This document shows, piece after piece, positions 1 through 58,806 of a stretch of DNA of 64,000 bases. A model generated the notes under the pieces. The model saw nothing but the letters and a program-made list of their open reading frames with translations. It ran no database searches and was not told the DNA's origin. Origin of the DNA: Escherichia virus TH43. How positions within the stretch are numbered: the stretch's first letter is position 1; the number at the start of each line of letters is the position of its first letter. The position numbers were made by a program, and so were the translations under genes. The stretch is from the sequence record MT446414.1. The stretch is one strand, 5' to 3'.

Positions 1-207
1 GGCTAACAAAGCTCTTGGTGGTGATTGTATTCAATTATTCAACACAAGACAAGAGGCTCGTCTTGCTAAGAAAACTATAAAAGCTACAAAAGCTTTAGGA
101 ATCGCTGAAAAGGTGGAGATTCATCGTTGGATTGAAAATATCCAGAACAGTGCTGGATTCATATCCAGCAAGGTTTATTACTAGTTGGTAGTAGATATGA
201 TAACTCT

Positions 208-230
208 CAAATGTATATACAGTATAAGAA
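208..230 (+). promoter_or_regulatory. candidate phage-specific promoter motif (AAATGTATATACAGTATAAG)
   Basis: member of the recurrent TAATGTA(T)ATA motif family; lies upstream of the first ORF. Confidence 0.35.
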
Positions 231-236
231 TATTGT

Positions 237-584
237 ATGAAACAGGAGAGAGTTATGTTAGATTTGAGTAAAGTGGCCCCGCCATCTGAAGAGATTAGCA
301 AAGCTAAAGTTATGCAGCAGTTCTATCATCGTGATATGCTTGGTCGTTATATCAAGAATCGTGATGTTGTTGCATGGTCTATTGGAAATCAAGGTTATCT
401 TCTCAAAGTGTTGCAAGTTACTGGCTCAACAGCCAAGCGTGTTAAGGTGTATGACCCTGAAATGGGGCGTTCTAAGTCTGTAGACCCACAGAACTGCATT
501 GTTATTACCCAGCAGGTCATGGACAACATTGCTCGTAACGTAGCCAATTCAACCAACTTAGAAGGAGAGACTCCTAATGCATAA
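237..584 (+). CDS. hypothetical protein (more likely start ATG 255 after RBS AGGAGAG)
   Basis: ORF track; RBS at 243-249. Confidence 0.5.
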   Translation: MKQERVMLDLSKVAPPSEEISKAKVMQQFYHRDMLGRYIKNRDVVAWSIGNQGYLLKVLQVTGSTAKRVKVYDPEMGRSKSVDPQNCIVITQQVMDNIARNVANSTNLEGETPNA

Positions 585-1143
585 TAATGTCTTCGACTTA
601 CCTGAACTAACACGAGTGGGTTCTAGTAACCCATTCTCTACAACTGACTCCTCTATCTCTCGTCTTGAGGGAATGAATAAACTGATCAGCGGTAACAGTC
701 TAGAGCACATCCTATGCGGTGTGCAGGCTAACCTTGAGCTTCTACACATCAAAGCAAAGAATTACCACTGGAACGTCTCTGGAGCTGGTTTCCAAGGTGT
801 TCATGGTATGTTCGATGAATTAGAAGACTATGCTCGTGAAACAGGAGACCGAGTAGCTGAGCGAATGCGTTATCACTGTATCAAAGTGGATGCAACAGCT
901 AGTAGCTATCTTAGTTGTGCTTGGTTCAGAGAAGGTAGTGCTGATCTCGACATGGACGGTATGCTTTCCGACATGTGCATGACTCTGATGTGTATCATTG
1001 AAAAGATGGACGAGTTTGATTCAGACTTGTGCACCTATCCAGTAGACCAGAGTATGCTTCAAGAAATTAATGAAGGTCTTGGCAAGTTCTGTTACTTCGT
1101 CAAGAGCAACATGTCCCACTCTAGTGGTGACGTGTCTTACTAA
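577..1143 (+). CDS. hypothetical protein
   Basis: ORF track; RBS GGAGAG upstream; start overlaps previous stop. Confidence 0.55.
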   Translation: MHNNVFDLPELTRVGSSNPFSTTDSSISRLEGMNKLISGNSLEHILCGVQANLELLHIKAKNYHWNVSGAGFQGVHGMFDELEDYARETGDRVAERMRYHCIKVDATASSYLSCAWFREGSADLDMDGMLSDMCMTLMCIIEKMDEFDSDLCTYPVDQSMLQEINEGLGKFCYFVKSNMSHSSGDVSY

Positions 1144-1164
1144 TCAAACCTCCGCCCTGTCTCT

Positions 1165-1386
1165 TTGTTTAAGAGGTGGGGCGAACTTCTTTATAAGGAT
1201 GTGAATATGTTTTCAGCAATCGTATGGTCTGTGTGGGCAATTCTTGTTGGTGGTATCGTTTATCTGGCTCAGAAACAGATGCTTAAAGAAAATCCGAATG
1301 ATGCTAAACCCATTAAACATGGCAGCATTGCTCTGGTAATTTTCTCTGTTGTCATTCCTTTCCTTCTCCACCTGTTGACTGCATAA
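1165..1386 (+). CDS. small membrane protein (alternative start 1207); paralog of the next ORF
   Basis: hydrophobic helices; RBS AAGGA before ATG 1207. Confidence 0.45.
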   Translation: MFKRWGELLYKDVNMFSAIVWSVWAILVGGIVYLAQKQMLKENPNDAKPIKHGSIALVIFSVVIPFLLHLLTA

Positions 1387-1395
1387 GGGTTTGAT

Positions 1396-1581
1396 ATGAT
1401 TTCACTGATTGTGTGGGCCGTGTGGTCGTTAATAGTTGGTACTGTTATATATAAAGCTCGAAATTTAGCAATTAAAGAAAACCCAGCAGAAGAGGATGTT
1501 AAAGCTATCAAGCTAGGTAGTGTTGTTCTGGTACATTTTGCTATAACACTACCTCTTGTTATTATTCTTTGTATGCTGTAA
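1396..1581 (+). CDS. small membrane protein; paralog of 1165..1386
   Basis: shared VW-x-W..LVGG..Y.A....KENP...K.IK.GS pattern. Confidence 0.45.
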   Translation: MISLIVWAVWSLIVGTVIYKARNLAIKENPAEEDVKAIKLGSVVLVHFAITLPLVIILCML

Positions 1582-1593
1582 GGAACCTGAAGA

Positions 1594-1770
1594 ATGAAAC
1601 TAAAACTCCCTGAAGAGTTGCAAGCACACGCCATTATTGTTAGTGGCTGTGTGATGGGTCTTGGTCAGACAAAGAAGATTGCTCATGACTTAGCAAAAGG
1701 TCAGTATAAATCTTTTATTGTTGTTCCTGCTACCCAGCGTCATATCAACCTGTTTATTAACAAGGAATAG
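1594..1770 (+). CDS. small hypothetical protein (58 aa, below track cutoff)
   Basis: manual translation; RBS AAGGAA 9 nt upstream. Confidence 0.35.
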   Translation: MKLKLPEELQAHAIIVSGCVMGLGQTKKIAHDLAKGQYKSFIVVPATQRHINLFINKE

Positions 1771-1771
1771 A

Positions 1772-2047
1772 ATGAGTAAAGTAATTAAGTTTTACAGTAA
1801 TTCATGTGCTCCGTGTGCAGCTATGGCTCCTGTGTTTAAGAAGGTTGTGGCTGACTACAGTGTAGAAGTTGAAGAAGTAAATATCTCTGAAGGTGATGGT
1901 CGAGAGCGAGCCATTGAATACGGTGTTCGCAGTATCCCAGCCTTTGTCGTCCCTGATAAGAATAGTGGTGCTCATTATAGTTTATCAGGTATGCAAACTG
2001 AATCTAATCTCCGTGCATTTTTAGACACGGCTCTGAAAGGTATTTAA
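1772..2047 (+). CDS. thioredoxin-fold redox protein (CxxC)
   Basis: N-terminal KFYSNSCAPCAAMAPVF motif; RBS AAGGAA. Confidence 0.6.
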   Translation: MSKVIKFYSNSCAPCAAMAPVFKKVVADYSVEVEEVNISEGDGRERAIEYGVRSIPAFVVPDKNSGAHYSLSGMQTESNLRAFLDTALKGI

Positions 2048-2048
2048 T

Positions 2049-2264
2049 ATGGAAAAGAAACCTTGGATTACTTTTTGGGTAGTTAAGTGGTTTAATTTTG
2101 ATAGCACAATCCCTAGTTTCTCCTCATATACAACACGGAGAGAGGCTCGCCGCTTTAAGCGAGCTTTAAAAATTGCTAACACTGGCGCTTCTAAGATTAC
2201 AATTCAGAAAGGGATTGAAACAGAAAGTGGAAGCAACATGATTTATAAAAAGATTCATTATTAA
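2049..2264 (+). CDS. hypothetical protein
   Basis: ORF track. Confidence 0.4.
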   Translation: MEKKPWITFWVVKWFNFDSTIPSFSSYTTRREARRFKRALKIANTGASKITIQKGIETESGSNMIYKKIHY

Positions 2265-2278
2265 GGAAGAGTTCAAGG

Positions 2279-2929
2279 ATGAATGAACAATTACAAGCAA
2301 CACTAATCGAAGCAATGGGTTCTGATAAATCTGTTGTTAATGCAGCTCGAGTTTCCTTTGGGGTTACTCGTGAAGGAGAGTTAAATGAACGAGATGAACG
2401 CCTTATCAAATTCCTTGCCAGAGAAAAGCATGTCACACCATTCCGTCATCCGACAATTAGCTTCCGATGCAAAGCGCCAATCGCAATTGCGAGACAGTTG
2501 GGCAAGCATCAAGTTGGATTCTCGTGGAACGAAATGTCCCGGCGGTATAAAGATGGAGCAGTTGAACTCTTCATCCCTAAAGAGATTTTTGAAAGACCTT
2601 CGGACCTCCATGCAGGTGCAGGGAATCTCCTCACCACAGGAGCACAAAACTCTGCACTAGTTCTGATTAATCGAGCATATGAAACAGCTCTTGAGTCGTA
2701 CGATGAATTGATTAAGTTCATTGCTCCAGAACAAGCTCGATTCGTATTACCTCAGGGTATGATCACTGAGTGGGTATGGACTGGTTCTCTATATGGTTGG
2801 TCAGAGTTGTGTCGTCAGAGATTGTCAGACCATGCTCAGTACGAAGTACGAGTGTTCGCATCAACAATTGATGAAGAGCTTCGTAAAATATACCCAATCT
2901 CTTGGGATGCATTACGTGAAGCCCACTAA
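2279..2929 (+). CDS. thyX: flavin-dependent thymidylate synthase ThyX-like protein
   Basis: AARVSF...TPFRH...FRCKAPIAIARQ...SWNEMSRRY resembles the ThyX core; canonical RHR appears as KHQ. Confidence 0.6.
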   Translation: MNEQLQATLIEAMGSDKSVVNAARVSFGVTREGELNERDERLIKFLAREKHVTPFRHPTISFRCKAPIAIARQLGKHQVGFSWNEMSRRYKDGAVELFIPKEIFERPSDLHAGAGNLLTTGAQNSALVLINRAYETALESYDELIKFIAPEQARFVLPQGMITEWVWTGSLYGWSELCRQRLSDHAQYEVRVFASTIDEELRKIYPISWDALREAH

Positions 2930-3101
2930 AGCATGTAGCTTCTGTCGAAAGCAGAAGCTTCTTATCAATTTCAAACTGAATGAGGAAACAGGTTTGGGTC
3001 ATGCTTTTTGTCATGATTGCAGGCACTACCTCGAACAGAAGCAATACATAAACTGGTTGCATTACTACAACCCTAACATCTATAATCACAAGGTTATCTA
3101 A
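2906..3101 (+). CDS. small zinc-ribbon protein (CxxC...CxxC); overlaps thyX 3' end; start uncertain
   Basis: ORF track 2793..3101; Cys pairs CSFC and CHDC. Confidence 0.35.
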
Positions 3102-3581
3102 ATGAAAGCTATTTTTGAAGGAAGGGAGTATGATGTTCCTGATTGGGTTAAATACATAGCCCGTGACTATGATAATCTGGTTTGGGCATATGGAGACGTA
3201 AGACCTGTGTTTAATGAAAACACTGGTAGTTGGTCTAACATGTCAAAATTGCCAGGATTTATTCGGGCACTTGGCTCTTCTAGTCGTCCTGTAGGTTTCG
3301 CTGCTGACTCACTTGTTGAGGTTGGTGTTGAAAAGGAAATAGACAAGCCAGAAACGATTTGGGTTTTATCTTCGAGTACCCCAATCAAAGGGAGTCGTGG
3401 GATTTCCTTCTATGTTGAACCGGTCGCTTACTTCAAAAATAAGCCAACCATCAACGCTCTGATGTTAAAGAACATTCCTTATTCACAAGTTGCTACTCTG
3501 TTAGATAATGGTACAGTGCTTGTTGAGAATAATGGGACAAATCAAATCTTTTATGATTTAGAAGAAAGGGTTTTGGAATGA
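3102..3581 (+). CDS. hypothetical protein
   Basis: ORF track. Confidence 0.5.
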   Translation: MKAIFEGREYDVPDWVKYIARDYDNLVWAYGDVRPVFNENTGSWSNMSKLPGFIRALGSSSRPVGFAADSLVEVGVEKEIDKPETIWVLSSSTPIKGSRGISFYVEPVAYFKNKPTINALMLKNIPYSQVATLLDNGTVLVENNGTNQIFYDLEERVLE

Positions 3582-3787
3582 GAATCTACAAATTAAGTCT
3601 ATGCTTTAGTGAATGGACTCACGACACAGAAGTAAAAGCAACTTATTACAAAGACCGTCCTACTCGTGGTCAGCTGATGCTAGATGGTATGGGTAGTGAT
3701 GCTTGTGATGTTGTTCTTCAATACGGAGCTGTTCAGGACTCTTCTCCCGGATATGTTTGGAAACTTGGGATTATTGAGGTTAAGTAA
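3578..3787 (+). CDS. hypothetical protein
   Basis: ORF track; ATGA overlap with previous gene. Confidence 0.45.
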   Translation: MRIYKLSLCFSEWTHDTEVKATYYKDRPTRGQLMLDGMGSDACDVVLQYGAVQDSSPGYVWKLGIIEVK

Positions 3788-4000
3788 ATGAAAGGTTTAG
3801 TATTAGGAAAACATCGATTTACTTTCCGTATCTCAGACAGGAATCCATACCCCACCAAGATTGAACCTTATGAGATTATCTCTGAAGTGTTTATCTGGCC
3901 TTGGCAAAGCATCTATGATGTTGCCCTTAAATCCAAGAAGAAGCTGATACCTGTTGGTATTTGGGCTGATGTTGATTTAATTAAAATCGAAAAGGTTTAA
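3788..4000 (+). CDS. hypothetical protein
   Basis: ORF track. Confidence 0.45.
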   Translation: MKGLVLGKHRFTFRISDRNPYPTKIEPYEIISEVFIWPWQSIYDVALKSKKKLIPVGIWADVDLIKIEKV

Positions 4001-4001
4001 A

Positions 4002-4322
4002 ATGATTAATGATAATACATTTAGGACTGGTAACGGAAACGAGATTAGTCCTGCTGAAGTGATTAAACGACACAGAACGCAGATGCTTATCCACTCCTAT
4101 TTGTATTATTGGTTGGATGACCCAATCTGGTCTGATGATAAATGGCAACAAGTGGCTGATGACTTAACCACTTTGCAAGAGATGTATCCTGAGCCTATTG
4201 GATTCTTTGATTCAGAGTTCAATGGGTGGAATGGCTCTACTGGTATGCATCTCCCTCATGACGAGCGTATTGCTTGTATGGCTACTGAAGTATATCGTTT
4301 ACATAAGGACAAATCTATCTGA
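4002..4322 (+). CDS. hypothetical protein with NAD-ligase domain Ia-like motif
   Basis: HSYLYYWLDDPIWSDDKW...LQEMYPE resembles the LigA N-terminal Ia domain (recalled). Confidence 0.45.
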   Translation: MINDNTFRTGNGNEISPAEVIKRHRTQMLIHSYLYYWLDDPIWSDDKWQQVADDLTTLQEMYPEPIGFFDSEFNGWNGSTGMHLPHDERIACMATEVYRLHKDKSI

Positions 4323-4500
4323 AATGTTTTAAATGTGAATCCACTCTTCTCCATCTGGACTCGAAAGTAATACGAGAGCTTGCTAAAGGCTCTCCGACGA
4401 AAGGGAAGAATAAGAAATTTGTCGAAGTTAAGGTTATAGGTACTCATTGTTCAGAGTGTAAATCCTGTAGCTACACGTATGAAGAACTTGGAGGTAGAAA

Positions 4501-37493: not shown

Positions 37494-38240
37494 TTATCTG
37501 TATCTACGAATGCCGTACACTTCTCGTGAGCTATTAAGACGGCTAATAGTATTAGGGATTACTAGAGGGGAACCTGAGTATTCTGCTTTCTTACTCTGCT
37601 CCACAATCTCGTCAAGGATTGCTTTACCAAGTGCTGACCACTTTTGAACTCCATTATCATCTTGAACGAATAAAGAAGCATGACGCAGCGTAAAATATAG
37701 AAGCAGCTCAGGAGCAATAGTTAGAATAGCACTGGTATCTTCATCAGAGTGGAACTCCGGTGGGTCTGCATAATAACTTAAAACTACAGCATTCTCAGCA
37801 GGGATTTCAGGTGCTCCATCATCAGGATAAACAGGAGTATCTGCATCAATTAGAGGGTAGAACATAAACCGACTACCTAAACGAGCAAAAACAACTTCCC
37901 CTTGATTCCAATTGGATGGGTTGACTGAGTTATTTCTCTTCAACCAGTCAAGTTCTTCAGGAGAGGTTACTCTGAACATCATCCCATTTGAAGCTCTCAT
38001 AATCCATTGTGCTTCTAAAAAGTCAGGAGGGATAAAAGCAATACCATCCTTGATATCTAAATATACTTCTTTTTCCAGAGGAGGAATTCGTAAGTTACGA
38101 TAAATTTCCTTCTCTGCAAAGTTGATGAAATTTGGAATTTGATTAACAAATTCGTCGTCATCCCTATCGGCCCAGAGTGACACAGCCTTTTTAAGCCAGC
38201 CATAGGTGTTGATAGGATACTGAACTTCAGGCATTGCCAT
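37494..38240 (-). CDS. virion structural protein (head-tail adaptor candidate)
   Basis: position directly downstream of capsid; RBS AGGAGG. Confidence 0.45.
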   Translation of the reverse strand: MAMPEVQYPINTYGWLKKAVSLWADRDDDEFVNQIPNFINFAEKEIYRNLRIPPLEKEVYLDIKDGIAFIPPDFLEAQWIMRASNGMMFRVTSPEELDWLKRNNSVNPSNWNQGEVVFARLGSRFMFYPLIDADTPVYPDDGAPEIPAENAVVLSYYADPPEFHSDEDTSAILTIAPELLLYFTLRHASLFVQDDNGVQKWSALGKAILDEIVEQSKKAEYSGSPLVIPNTISRLNSSREVYGIRRYR

Positions 38241-38304: not shown

Positions 38305-38337
38305 AAAATGAGAAAAGGCCACCCGAAGGCAGCCTTA
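38305..38337 (-). terminator. rho-independent terminator after the capsid/Ig ORF
   Basis: minus strand GGCTGCC-TTCG-GGTGGCC hairpin then TTTTCTCATTTT. Confidence 0.55.
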
Positions 38338-38340
38338 GTT

Positions 38341-39459
38341 TTAAGCACCAGATTTAACGGTGTAGGTTTTGAACACTGTAGAACCTGGGTCAGTTCTCAG
38401 GGTTACTTTAGTATCTTCACTAGTGATAGCACCAGAGAGCGTAATTGTTAAAGCATCACCAGAAATGGTAATACTCAATTTGTCTGCATCTGTGCCTTCT
38501 ACATCATATACGATAGTTCCTAGTGGAGCACCTTGAGGAACAGAAGCTATGTTAAAAACTCCTGGTTGGCTTGGGTCTGAGATTGTCAAAGTATCACCAG
38601 CTACTGACCCATCAGACACTGCTGAAACAACTAAACCAGTAAGTTTAGGTATTACGTCTTCTATGGTAGAAGTTGCAGTTACTGAAGTCTGGGTTTTATG
38701 AGTAGCCTTAACAGTTACATTGTCATTCGCTGTATCTGACAAGGTTAACAAGCCAGAGGTAGCATTAACAGAACCGGCAGCAGTAGGGGTTACTACAAAA
38801 TTATAGTCACTAGCAGCTGAGCGTTGAACAGTAAACATATCTGTAAAAGCGACACTGTCTCCACCAGATTTTCCAGTAATAGCAGCTTTAGCCGCGATAG
38901 TTGGAGGCTGAGGGTTGACAACAACGTTAATCACTTTAGTGACAGAAGGTTTAGTAGAAGATTTAACTGTAAGAGTAGTACTACCTGCTGCAACAGCAGT
39001 TACACGACCAGCAGTTGTTACCGTAGCCTTAGTCGGATCTGCAATTTCCCAAGTAACACCTTGAGGTGCACCAGCAGGAGATACAGAAGCAGTCAGATTG
39101 GTAGCATCTGGAACAGTTATGGTAAGAGTATCACCAGTTAGACCACCACCAGTTACAGCAATGGAAGCTGGGTCAGGGATTGGAGCTTTAATTTCCGAGA
39201 TAACGGCAGTACCTGATACATCTTTAAGAGTAGCAGTCACTGTAATATCAGCGGTTTGAGGCGAACCCGGAGCAGTGAACAGTCCAGAAACAGAAATGGC
39301 CCCACCACCGGCTACTGACCAATCGAAGCCTGTAGTAGATGTGGAGCCATCGCTTAGTTCTGCTTCAGCTGTAAACTGTTGGGTAGCCCCGGTCAGCAGA
39401 CTAGCCACTGACGCGGGACTAACAGTTACGCTGTCAACTGTTACGCCCCCGCCTTTCCC
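38341..39459 (-). CDS. Ig-like domain C-terminal extension of capsid, reached by -1 frameshift (minor capsid fusion)
   Basis: ORF in -1 frame overlapping the capsid 3' end; slippery GGGAAAG; BIG2-like repeats. Confidence 0.5.
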   Translation of the reverse strand, partial: GKGGGVTVDSVTVSPASVASLLTGATQQFTAEAELSDGSTSTTGFDWSVAGGGAISVSGLFTAPGSPQTADITVTATLKDVSGTAVISEIKAPIPDPASIAVTGGGLTGDTLTITVPDATNLTASVSPAGAPQGVTWEIADPTKATVTTAGRVTAVAAGSTTLTVKSSTKPSVTKVINVVVNPQPPTIAAKAAITGKSGGDSVAFTDMFTVQRSAASDYNFVVTPTAAGSVNATSGLLTLSDTANDNVTVKATHKTQTSVTATSTIEDVIPKLTGLVVSAVSDGSVAGDTLTISDPSQPGVFNIASVPQGAPLGTIVYDVEGTDADKLSITISGDALTITLSGAITSEDTKVTLRTDPGSTVFKTYTVKSGA

Positions 39460-40499
39460 GCAGCGGTGAACAGTACACCAGAAGCATACGGGTTGCGGTG
39501 ACGCAGACCAACTTCCATTTCGATCATCCACTTCTCGTAAGAACCATCTTTAGCCAGTTCAGTACGCTTCGGAGCACGAAGGACCATCTGAGTCCAGTCA
39601 GAGCTGCGGAAGAAGTAAACTGCATCAGTAGGCATCCAACGGTTAACGATGATTTTATAGCTCTGACCCAGCGGGTCGGTGATGCTGTTAACTTCGTAGA
39701 TGAATTGTTTAGTGTTCTCAAAGATACGCTGACGAGAACCAACAGAGTTTTCCTGCAGCTTAGCAAAAATGCTAGCGTGAGCAGGGTTAATCATGATGAT
39801 ATCAGCTTCAGAACCTGCGGTATACAGCTGAAGAGTCATATCAAAGATATCTGCTTCATCAAAGCCTACGTTAGTGGTAGGGTTAGATGCGTTCTGTGCA
39901 ACTTTAACAGTTACTGCACCGGTATCCGGGTCAGCAGGGCCGTTCTTAGTCTTATCAACAACGCTACCAGACAGACCACCATGAGCACACAGGAACTGGA
40001 AAGCACCAGTCTTACGAGCTGCATGAGTATCATTCAGACCAGCCAGAGCAGGATCAGCTGCTGAGTTAGTCAGATACTGGTCAGCCAGAACGTCGGTACG
40101 AGCCTGACCGGACAGCAAGATTTTCTCGAGATCACGTTTAATCTCTTTACCTTTCTTCTCCAGCTGATACATCAGTTCACGACCACGACCGTAGTTAGCG
40201 GTGGTGTTAGCAGTATCAGAAACACGAACTACTTTACGCAGGATCTGAGTTACGTTAGATTTGATAACAGTCGGTTGCATTTCACCGTCATCAGCGCGAG
40301 AGCCTTCAACGTGTGCGTTGTTAGCATCAACACTTGCCAGTGCATCGGTCTGCCAGCTGAAAATAGTCTGGTTGATAGACTCTTTACCAGTCATAGACAC
40401 AAACGGAGTATCTTGCGGAGAGAGGACAGAAATCCAGTTAGCAAAAGAAAGTTTTTTACCGTTCTGGTCGTAAGATACAAATAAAGTTGGATTTGCCAT
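39441..40499 (-). CDS. major capsid protein
   Basis: follows portal and acidic scaffold; strong RBS; frameshift into Ig extension; terminator downstream. Confidence 0.6.
   Translation of the reverse strand: MANPTLFVSYDQNGKKLSFANWISVLSPQDTPFVSMTGKESINQTIFSWQTDALASVDANNAHVEGSRADDGEMQPTVIKSNVTQILRKVVRVSDTANTTANYGRGRELMYQLEKKGKEIKRDLEKILLSGQARTDVLADQYLTNSAADPALAGLNDTHAARKTGAFQFLCAHGGLSGSVVDKTKNGPADPDTGAVTVKVAQNASNPTTNVGFDEADIFDMTLQLYTAGSEADIIMINPAHASIFAKLQENSVGSRQRIFENTKQFIYEVNSITDPLGQSYKIIVNRWMPTDAVYFFRSSDWTQMVLRAPKRTELAKDGSYEKWMIEMEVGLRHRNPYASGVLFTAAGKAGA
39453..39459 (-). other. slippery heptanucleotide G_GGA_AAG for -1 programmed frameshift
   Basis: X_XXY_YYZ pattern 4 codons before the capsid stop; stem-loop follows. 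Confidence 0.5.
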
Positions 40500-40539
40500 G
40501 TTATGTTAGCTCCTATACTATTTAAAAATAATTTGTCGA

Positions 40540-58317: not shown

Positions 58318-58740
58318 TTGAAGATAGAGTTAGAATACCCCTTCGTTAATGACTGGCGATTGGGCTACTTAAGAACAAGCAGAGACGGTAGGAAGCGTGT
58401 TGATTTGTATAATACCGACACGGAGAGGACAACCATTTCTTACGCAAGATATTTAATGTCTTGTCACATAGGCAGGTACCTAACTGAAGACGAGGAGGTT
58501 GATCATATTGACAGAAATAAAACTAATGATGACATATCTAATCTTCAGATACTTTCCATAGAAAATCACAGAAAGAAGTCAACATTAGAAGCAACTACTG
58601 GAAGAACAATGATTTCAGTTGTTTGCTCTTATTGTGGAAGATCTTTTGAAAAAGAAAAGCGAAATGTTAAATATGCAAATTCTTTTTGTAACAGATCATG
58701 TGCAGGTAAGTATAACGGTTTCAAATCTATCGGGGCGTAG
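58318..58740 (+). CDS. HNH homing-endonuclease-like protein
   Basis: EEVDHIDRNKTNDDISNLQILSIENHRKK HNH motif. Confidence 0.55.
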   Translation: MKIELEYPFVNDWRLGYLRTSRDGRKRVDLYNTDTERTTISYARYLMSCHIGRYLTEDEEVDHIDRNKTNDDISNLQILSIENHRKKSTLEATTGRTMISVVCSYCGRSFEKEKRNVKYANSFCNRSCAGKYNGFKSIGA

Positions 58741-58806
58741 TCTAGTGGAACAGGCAGCGAGCTTCTAACTCGCCTTACGAGGGTTCGAATCCTTCCGTCC
58801 CGACCA
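58731..58806 (+). tRNA. tRNA-Arg (anticodon TCT)
   Basis: hand-folded 76 nt cloverleaf: 7 bp acceptor, D-loop with GG, anticodon loop CTTCTAA, T-loop TTCGAAT, encoded CCA. Confidence 0.8.

Follow-up and report, generated by a model that had tools for sequence, protein, structure and literature searches.

A probable -1 ribosomal frameshift at the end of the major capsid gene of Escherichia virus TH43, predicted to yield a minor capsid isoform with Ig-like domains

The DNA analysed here, a stretch of 64,000 nucleotides from Escherichia virus TH43 (MT446414.1) that is referred to as the window, comes from a phiEco32/SU10-like coliphage of the Gordonclarkvirinae, within the Kuravirus-like group. 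At the capsid–Ig locus, the nearest records are those of Bas88, EK010 and E20-1 (97.5%, 95.5% and 95.4%, respectively). The order of the structural genes, i.e., portal-scaffold-capsid-Ig-adaptor-tail fibre, is shared with phiEco32, SU10, EK010 and Bas88, in which synteny is identical. A single tRNA-Arg(TCT) gene is found at 58731..58806 on the plus strand, opposite to that of the structural genes. The features of the capsid–Ig locus are as follows:

40514..40510, minus strand: Shine-Dalgarno sequence of the capsid gene, AGGAG (SD duplex energy -6.5 kcal/mol)
39441..40499, minus strand: major capsid protein gene, zero frame, 352 aa, 38.6 kDa (from the ORF and Pfam)
39459..39453, minus strand: slippery heptamer G_GGA_AAG in X_XXY_YYZ register, 9 nt before the capsid stop
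39441..39452, minus strand: dual-coding overlap, read as A-G-A-stop in the zero frame and as the Gly linker GGG into the first Ig module in the -1 frame
39411..39452, minus strand: downstream hairpin (-20.7 kcal/mol)
38341..39453, minus strand: -1 frame extension, 370 codons plus TAA at 38343..38341
~39444..39184, minus strand: Ig-like β-sandwich module 1
~39171..38914, minus strand: Ig-like β-sandwich module 2
~38901..38650, minus strand: Ig-like β-sandwich module 3
~38640..38344, minus strand: Ig-like β-sandwich module 4
38305..38336, minus strand: intrinsic terminator (9-bp stem, TTCG loop, T tract), adjoining the extension stop

The terminator (38336..38315 plus the T tract) ends the capsid/capsid-Ig transcription unit, and the SU10 record carries an annotated terminator at the equivalent place. 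The adaptor gene (37494..38240) comes directly after it, with no insertion in the window. A gene annotated as an HNH endonuclease lies between the Ig ORF and the adaptor gene in Bas86 and IME267, and the same interval in PAS59 holds a 513-nt ORF that has the size of the HNH-annotated gene and is annotated as hypothetical.

The capsid protein belongs to the SU10_MCP family, the sole Pfam family that it matched (E=2.8e-78), and it aligned with the SU10 major head protein in the PDB (7z45) at E=5.9e-229. The 3' end of its ORF reads ...GCT GCG GGA AAG GCG GGG GCG TAA, in which AAG is the fourth codon before the stop. Direct reading thus bore out the initial annotation, which had placed the capsid ORF at 39441..40499 on the minus strand with G_GGA_AAG at 39459..39453, four codons from the stop; its coordinates were all correct. 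As a bare heptamer GGGAAAG is unremarkable in the window, with eight copies against 6.7 expected. The copy at 39459 is the only one that lies in slippery register within a long ORF. In a scan of both strands of the window for ORFs of at least 100 codons with an in-register canonical heptamer within 90 nt of the stop and a long -1 read-on, this site was also the sole hit. By eye, no SD-like upstream stimulator of the dnaX type was seen in TTCACYGCTGCGGGAAAG.

From 39453 the -1 frame stays open for 370 codons, up to the TAA at 38343..38341, as had been claimed (about 370 codons, to 38341); at the base composition of the window, an open run of this length has a chance probability of ~1.4e-10. The trans-frame product would comprise 349 + 370 = 719 aa, in agreement with the fusion of about 720 aa proposed initially, and would have a mass of 74.9 kDa as compared with 38.6 kDa for the capsid protein alone. 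Its predicted junction is ...GVLFTAAGK/GGGVTVDSVTVS..., i.e., ...FTAAGK/GGGVTVDSV..., and the trypsin-cut peptide of the extension is predicted to begin with GGGVTVDSVTVSPASVASLLTGATQQFTAEAELSDGS... directly at the slip site.

The Ig-like character of the extension was evident from several comparisons, which upheld the earlier reading of Ig-like repeats. Pfam Big_2 was matched over two stretches (E=1.8e-10) and the PHROG family 'Ig domain containing protein' at E=4e-48. An AlphaFold2 model was all-β, with a mean pLDDT of 74 and values above 90 for approximately the last 190 residues (181-370); the model was built on 32 sequences, and its N-terminal ~130 residues were poorly modelled, the alignment being thin there. 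A Foldseek search of the PDB with this model found tandem Ig/cadherin-like arrays as well as the Ig-like domains of the SU10 nozzle and the capsid decoration protein of N4, and no solved structure had sequence similarity to the extension. We read the extension as four β-sandwich modules, each of roughly 85-100 aa. The first begins within ~8 residues of the slip site, behind the GGG linker, and its segment VTVSPASVASLLTGATQQFTA could be aligned to the beginning of a Big_2 domain from a distant relative. No database protein found in a homology search with the extension was annotated as a fusion, the matches being separate ORFs of 231-646 aa (231-527 aa in phage relatives).

These annotations correspond to an alternative in which the Ig ORF is a separate gene with its own start, e.g., GTG 39408, encoding a free head-decoration protein that binds the capsid non-covalently. 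Every deposited record annotates a distinct 'Ig domain containing protein', and the SU10 structure paper considers that gp10 may be a minor capsid protein that is lost during purification (PMC9509320). To be expressed in this way, the ORF would have to be initiated independently, and the initial annotation had named an ATG at 39531 as the start that such a rival reading would require. This codon is in fact a GTG. It is the first start codon of the mechanical -1 ORF and sits inside the capsid gene. Within its first 100 codons, that ORF lacks ATG altogether, and GTG occurs just three times (39531, 39408 and 39240). When each ATG, GTG and TTG in this stretch was scored by SD/anti-SD duplex energy, the three GTGs gave -4.2, +1.0 and +0.6 kcal/mol, respectively, as against -5.9 to -10.2 kcal/mol for six neighbouring real genes. 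Even the weak SD of GTG 39531 does not make that codon a credible start, and since no other scored codon was credible by SD energy, independent initiation within the -1 ORF was rejected. GTG 39408, which is the start used in the Bas88 and EK010 records, would moreover cost the protein its first β-strand, VTVSPAS, which aligns with the Big_2 domain of a relative. On the coding strand between the capsid and Ig ORFs, no promoter- or terminator-like site was found.

Comparison with relatives also bears on this alternative. Each of the 18 Kuravirus-group sequences examined, the window among them, has an identical GGGAAAG in register, 9-15 nt ahead of the stop codon of the capsid gene. The -1 frame is open across the group, with SU10 exceptional in that its frame closes after 11 codons. 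The extension falls into length classes of 178-180, 264, 370-372, 455-459 and 541 codons, while the junction is fixed. The steps between classes are approximately one Ig module, and pairwise comparison showed that terminal modules are held in common, whereas internal modules have been gained or lost. Between the heptamer and the hairpin, indels in relatives come only in multiples of three. The linker encoded in the -1 frame is GGG, GSGG, GGSG or VGSA in relatives, i.e., Gly/Ser-rich, and lies upstream of every possible start; its retention makes sense only if translation runs through it. By contrast, the annotated starts are arbitrary among relatives, lying 6 to 180 nt past the capsid stop and cutting into the first Ig domain, and the linker and its reading frame are conserved upstream of all of them. 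In Privateervirus, the second residue past the slip site is already the first of an I-set domain.

SU10 stands on the other side of this comparison. A 1-nt insertion, an extra C in the loop of the junction hairpin, closes its -1 frame and uncouples its Ig ORF from the heptamer, yet the ORF has been kept. The extra C (KM044272.1, locus 3662..3700, column 36 of alignment A1), which accompanies a longer hairpin stem, is either a true mutation or a sequencing error, given that mass spectrometry in 2014 gave a 55.4-kDa form, whereas cryo-EM and gel analysis in 2022 were without the long form. On balance, we consider a separate Ig gene unlikely and favour translation of the extension by -1 frameshifting from the capsid gene.

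If ribosomes do enter the -1 frame from the capsid gene, the change of frame might be placed elsewhere, by a single-tRNA -1 slip on the G run (GCG_GGG_GCG, 39452..39444) or by slippage of RNA polymerase, with nearly the same fusion as the result. Five G residues directly follow the heptamer in the window and in Bas88, and tRNA-Gly could re-pair there in the -1 frame. The G run is, however, not conserved, relatives having GGTGGCGGCG, GGCAGTGGCGGCG or GTTGGATCCGCA in its place, whereas the heptamer is invariant; moreover, runs of three A or five G residues are short for transcriptional slippage. We regard a frame change outside the heptamer as very improbable. Similarly, it is scarcely credible that the extension is no more than a relic, decaying or without function as has been suggested for SU10, with only the 352-aa capsid protein of importance. 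Virions are still made by SU10 despite its apparent loss of the long isoform, but the -1 frame of the window is intact for 370 codons (chance ~1e-10), encodes a protein 99% identical to the extension of EK010 and folds into confident β-sandwich domains in the AlphaFold2 model.

Slippage at the heptamer could be assisted by RNA structure. The initial annotation had drawn a potential stem-loop directly 3' of the heptamer, and one is present, the 42 nt immediately downstream (39452..39411) folding at -20.7 kcal/mol. Among 45-nt windows taken from the same strand over 20-60 kb, its stability ranks in the top 0.075%, and among windows of matching GC content in the top 1.4%; against dinucleotide shuffles, z = -2.5. 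The core arms (39443..39435 and 39428..39420) form 9 bp in the window. Seven of these, UAACAGU/ACUGUUA (39443..39437 with 39426..39420), constitute an invariant core that begins 9 nt past the heptamer and is identical across the junctions of 11 distinct relatives; only the G/C-rich lower stem, which reaches the base adjoining the heptamer, varies, and in part breaks. RNAalifold and pair counts over these 11 distinct junctions revealed no covariation, with statistics equal to those of shuffles, because the core never varies. In the -1 frame, each arm of the core is translated as Val-Thr-Val, the first using ACA and the second ACT, so that a coding constraint could by itself account for much of the conservation. 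No Rfam family matched the junction (39300..39600, E<=10). We give roughly even odds to the hairpin acting as a putative stimulator of slippage.

An alternative small stem, CCGC...GCGG, can be formed at 39467..39449 on the minus strand, with the heptamer in its loop. It is the form in which an enclosing stem-loop proposed for SU10, CTGCTGCGGGAAAGGCGGCGG (PMC4281155), can be drawn in the window. This stem was not adopted, being mutually exclusive with the lower stem of the hairpin and having an unusual geometry for a stimulator.

Taken together, the in-register heptamer, the open Ig-coding -1 frame, the lack of a usable start, the conservation among relatives and the literature on those relatives support the programmed -1 frameshift that had initially been put forward. 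We hold it to be highly probable, on the strength of the sequence and its comparisons, that slippage at G_GGA_AAG makes a minor 719-aa capsid-Ig isoform in the window phage. According to this model, most ribosomes would read GGA-AAG and three further codons before stopping, giving the 352-aa capsid protein. A minority would slip back by one base, with the P-site tRNA-Gly moving from GGA to GGG and the A-site tRNA-Lys from AAG to AAA, and would then pass through the GGG linker into four tandem Ig-like β-sandwich domains to produce the 719-aa, 74.9-kDa isoform. The hairpin just 3' of the heptamer would probably pause the ribosome and raise the frequency of slipping. The capsid-Ig isoform is expected to co-assemble as a minor species in the prolate head, presumably with its Ig domains displayed on the outside, where they would probably adhere weakly to carbohydrates of the surface. 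Such display and adhesion would correspond to the general view of phage Ig-like domains (Fraser 2006, cited in PMC9965538). By analogy with published work on relatives, virions of the window phage would contain two capsid species. The SU10 head has ~715 capsid subunits (PMC9509320), and with a slip rate of a few per cent such a number would imply tens of Ig-tagged subunits per head.

Candidate slip sites were also found at the ends of capsid genes in more distant clades:

Privateervirus (L016, L017): G_GGA_AAG abutting TAA; -1 extension of 169 aa with I-set and Big_2
Metagenomic contigs, LAh_8-type and related (L009-L012): imperfect G_GTA_AAG; 90-169 aa, Big_2 or I-set
Phage PJNS034 (L021): C_CCA_AAA; 132 aa, I-set
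L014: A_AAA_AAG; 42-aa read-on

The sites other than that of L014, whose short 42-aa read-on lay outside the Pfam scan, open into Ig or Big_2 domains. As judged from sequence, G_GTA_AAG in L009-L012 would be a non-canonical -1 site relying on the A_AAG slip. This motif is kept at the end of the capsid gene (~4410..4421) in the four divergent contigs, whose Ig domains differ (Big_2 vs I-set), and in L009-L011 a small GC hairpin lies 6 nt downstream of it. Structure downstream of the slip site was frequent in these clades without being universal: it stood out clearly in PJNS034 (top 1.4% of windows), was weak in L016 and L017 (top 8%) as well as in L009-L011 (top 7-16%), and was lacking in L012 and L014.

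A different arrangement was observed in phages of the 7-11/GAP52/SeKF_80/BUCT695 type, which have two capsid paralogues and no slip site, the second paralogue carrying an in-frame Big_2 tail (366-589 aa). In BUCT695, SeKF_80, GAP52 and L013, the SU10_MCP paralogues are in tandem with a strong intrinsic terminator between them. Duplicated capsid genes separated by a terminator look like a way of obtaining a minor Ig-tagged capsid protein through transcription instead of frameshifting. The 124.9-kb contig L014 (IMGVR_UViG_3300033688_000038) contains four tandem SU10_MCP paralogues at 3..4430; two have in-frame C-terminal tails of ~135-140 aa without a Pfam match, and the last ends in the in-register A_AAA_AAG with its 42-codon -1 read-on.

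That a short capsid protein and a longer Ig-tagged one are reached by different genetic routes suggests that the long isoform is selected. A broader proposal, to which we give slightly less than an even chance, is that an Ig-tagged minor capsid isoform is an ancient selected trait of prolate-headed podophages (Gordonclarkvirinae, Grimontviridae). The trait may have been re-implemented repeatedly by interchangeable devices, i.e., at least four slip sites (G_GGA_AAG, G_GTA_AAG, C_CCA_AAA, A_AAA_AAG) or a duplicated capsid gene with an in-frame Ig tail behind a terminator that would fix the ratio at the level of transcription, with the number of Ig modules tuned between 2 and 6 by gain and loss. 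In a search of the literature that was not exhaustive, we did not find this comparative pattern of several slip sites or a duplicated gene leading to the same isoform described, and it might be the only part of the present work that is new.

The slippage join is annotated in none of the ~20 deposited relatives inspected in GenBank; in records L001-L003, L015-L017 and L022-L029, the Ig ORF appears as a separate CDS with inconsistent starts, 6-180 nt past the capsid stop. The gene for the 'Ig domain containing protein' should instead be recorded as encoding an isoform of the major capsid protein that arises by ribosomal slippage. With such an isoform, some of the ~715 capsid subunits (SU10 count, PMC9509320) would each bear 2 to 6 Ig-like domains. 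Adsorption to cell surfaces or mucus might be influenced as a result, and with it the host range or therapeutic behaviour of these coliphages, and the capsid C-terminus would be a natural display site.

The feature in the window is real but already known, since publications on this phage group describe it at the same heptamer. As a mechanism it is textbook, and what is specific to the window is the four-module, 370-codon extension, which it has in common with EK010. In YF01 'and other group phages', the capsid protein is reported to occur in two forms through slippage on GGGAAAG near the stop codon, and the length of the extended isoform, with its Ig-like domain, is given as ~500-550 aa for the majority of members and as 892-894 aa for YF01 and Paul; the same work also noted that a premature stop interrupts the SU10 -1 frame (PMC9965538). 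In SU10, the slip site was identified with reference to phiEco32, and mass spectrometry gave forms of 38.5 and 55.4 kDa (PMC4281155). Cryo-EM of SU10 showed no extra density for the Ig protein (PMC9509320), and no long band was seen (PMC9509320; PMC9965538); the missing density fits the truncated -1 frame of this phage. Privateer, which uses the same heptamer, displayed two capsid bands, and its minor capsid protein was detected by mass spectrometry (PMC7881722). The frameshifted product is also stated to have been seen in phiEco32 and SU10 (PMC7881722, second-hand for phiEco32).

Among these systems, the Kuravirus-like frameshift of phiEco32 (gp11/gp12), SU10, YF01 and Paul resembles that of the window in its SU10_MCP capsid protein (95% identity to phiEco32), in the position of the heptamer, the -1 direction, the Big_2 extension, the gene order and the terminator after the extension. 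It differs only in the length of the extension, which is 370 codons in the window and EK010, 178 in phiEco32 and 541 in Bas88. The Proteus phage Privateer likewise adds Ig domains by a -1 slip on GGGAAAG at the end of an SU10_MCP gene, but in Privateervirus the heptamer abuts the stop, the 169-aa extension consists of I-set and Big_2, the downstream hairpin is weak and the capsid protein is only ~57% identical.

The resemblance is more distant in other phages. The lambda G/GT heptamer, also G_GGA_AAG, reportedly makes a low percentage of ribosomes slip into the -1 frame in E. coli shortly before the upstream ORF ends, a finding attributed to Levin, Hendrix and Casjens in 1993. Slippage at G/GT has been quoted as ~3.5% (PMC9965538). 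The lambda products differ from those of the window in being unrelated tail-assembly chaperones with another function and a non-Ig extension. T7 10A/10B (and gene 10 of T3), to which the window feature had initially been likened, is similar in that ribosomes shift to the -1 frame close to the 3' end of the major capsid gene, and the heads incorporate a minor capsid protein with a C-terminal extension. The T7 slip site differs from G_GGA_AAG, and the T7 extension is short and non-Ig. The analogy extends to the mechanism alone, the capsid families being different, as the window protein matches only SU10_MCP in Pfam. For T7 gene 10, a frameshift of ~10% has been quoted (PMC9965538). Finally, the Grimontviridae of the 7-11/GAP52/SeKF_80/BUCT695 type arrive at the same end product, i.e., a short SU10_MCP capsid protein and a longer capsid+Big_2 form, but do so without recoding, the long form being a second, in-frame paralogue after an intrinsic terminator. 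The accurate label for the feature in the window is phiEco32-type capsid/capsid-Ig recoding.
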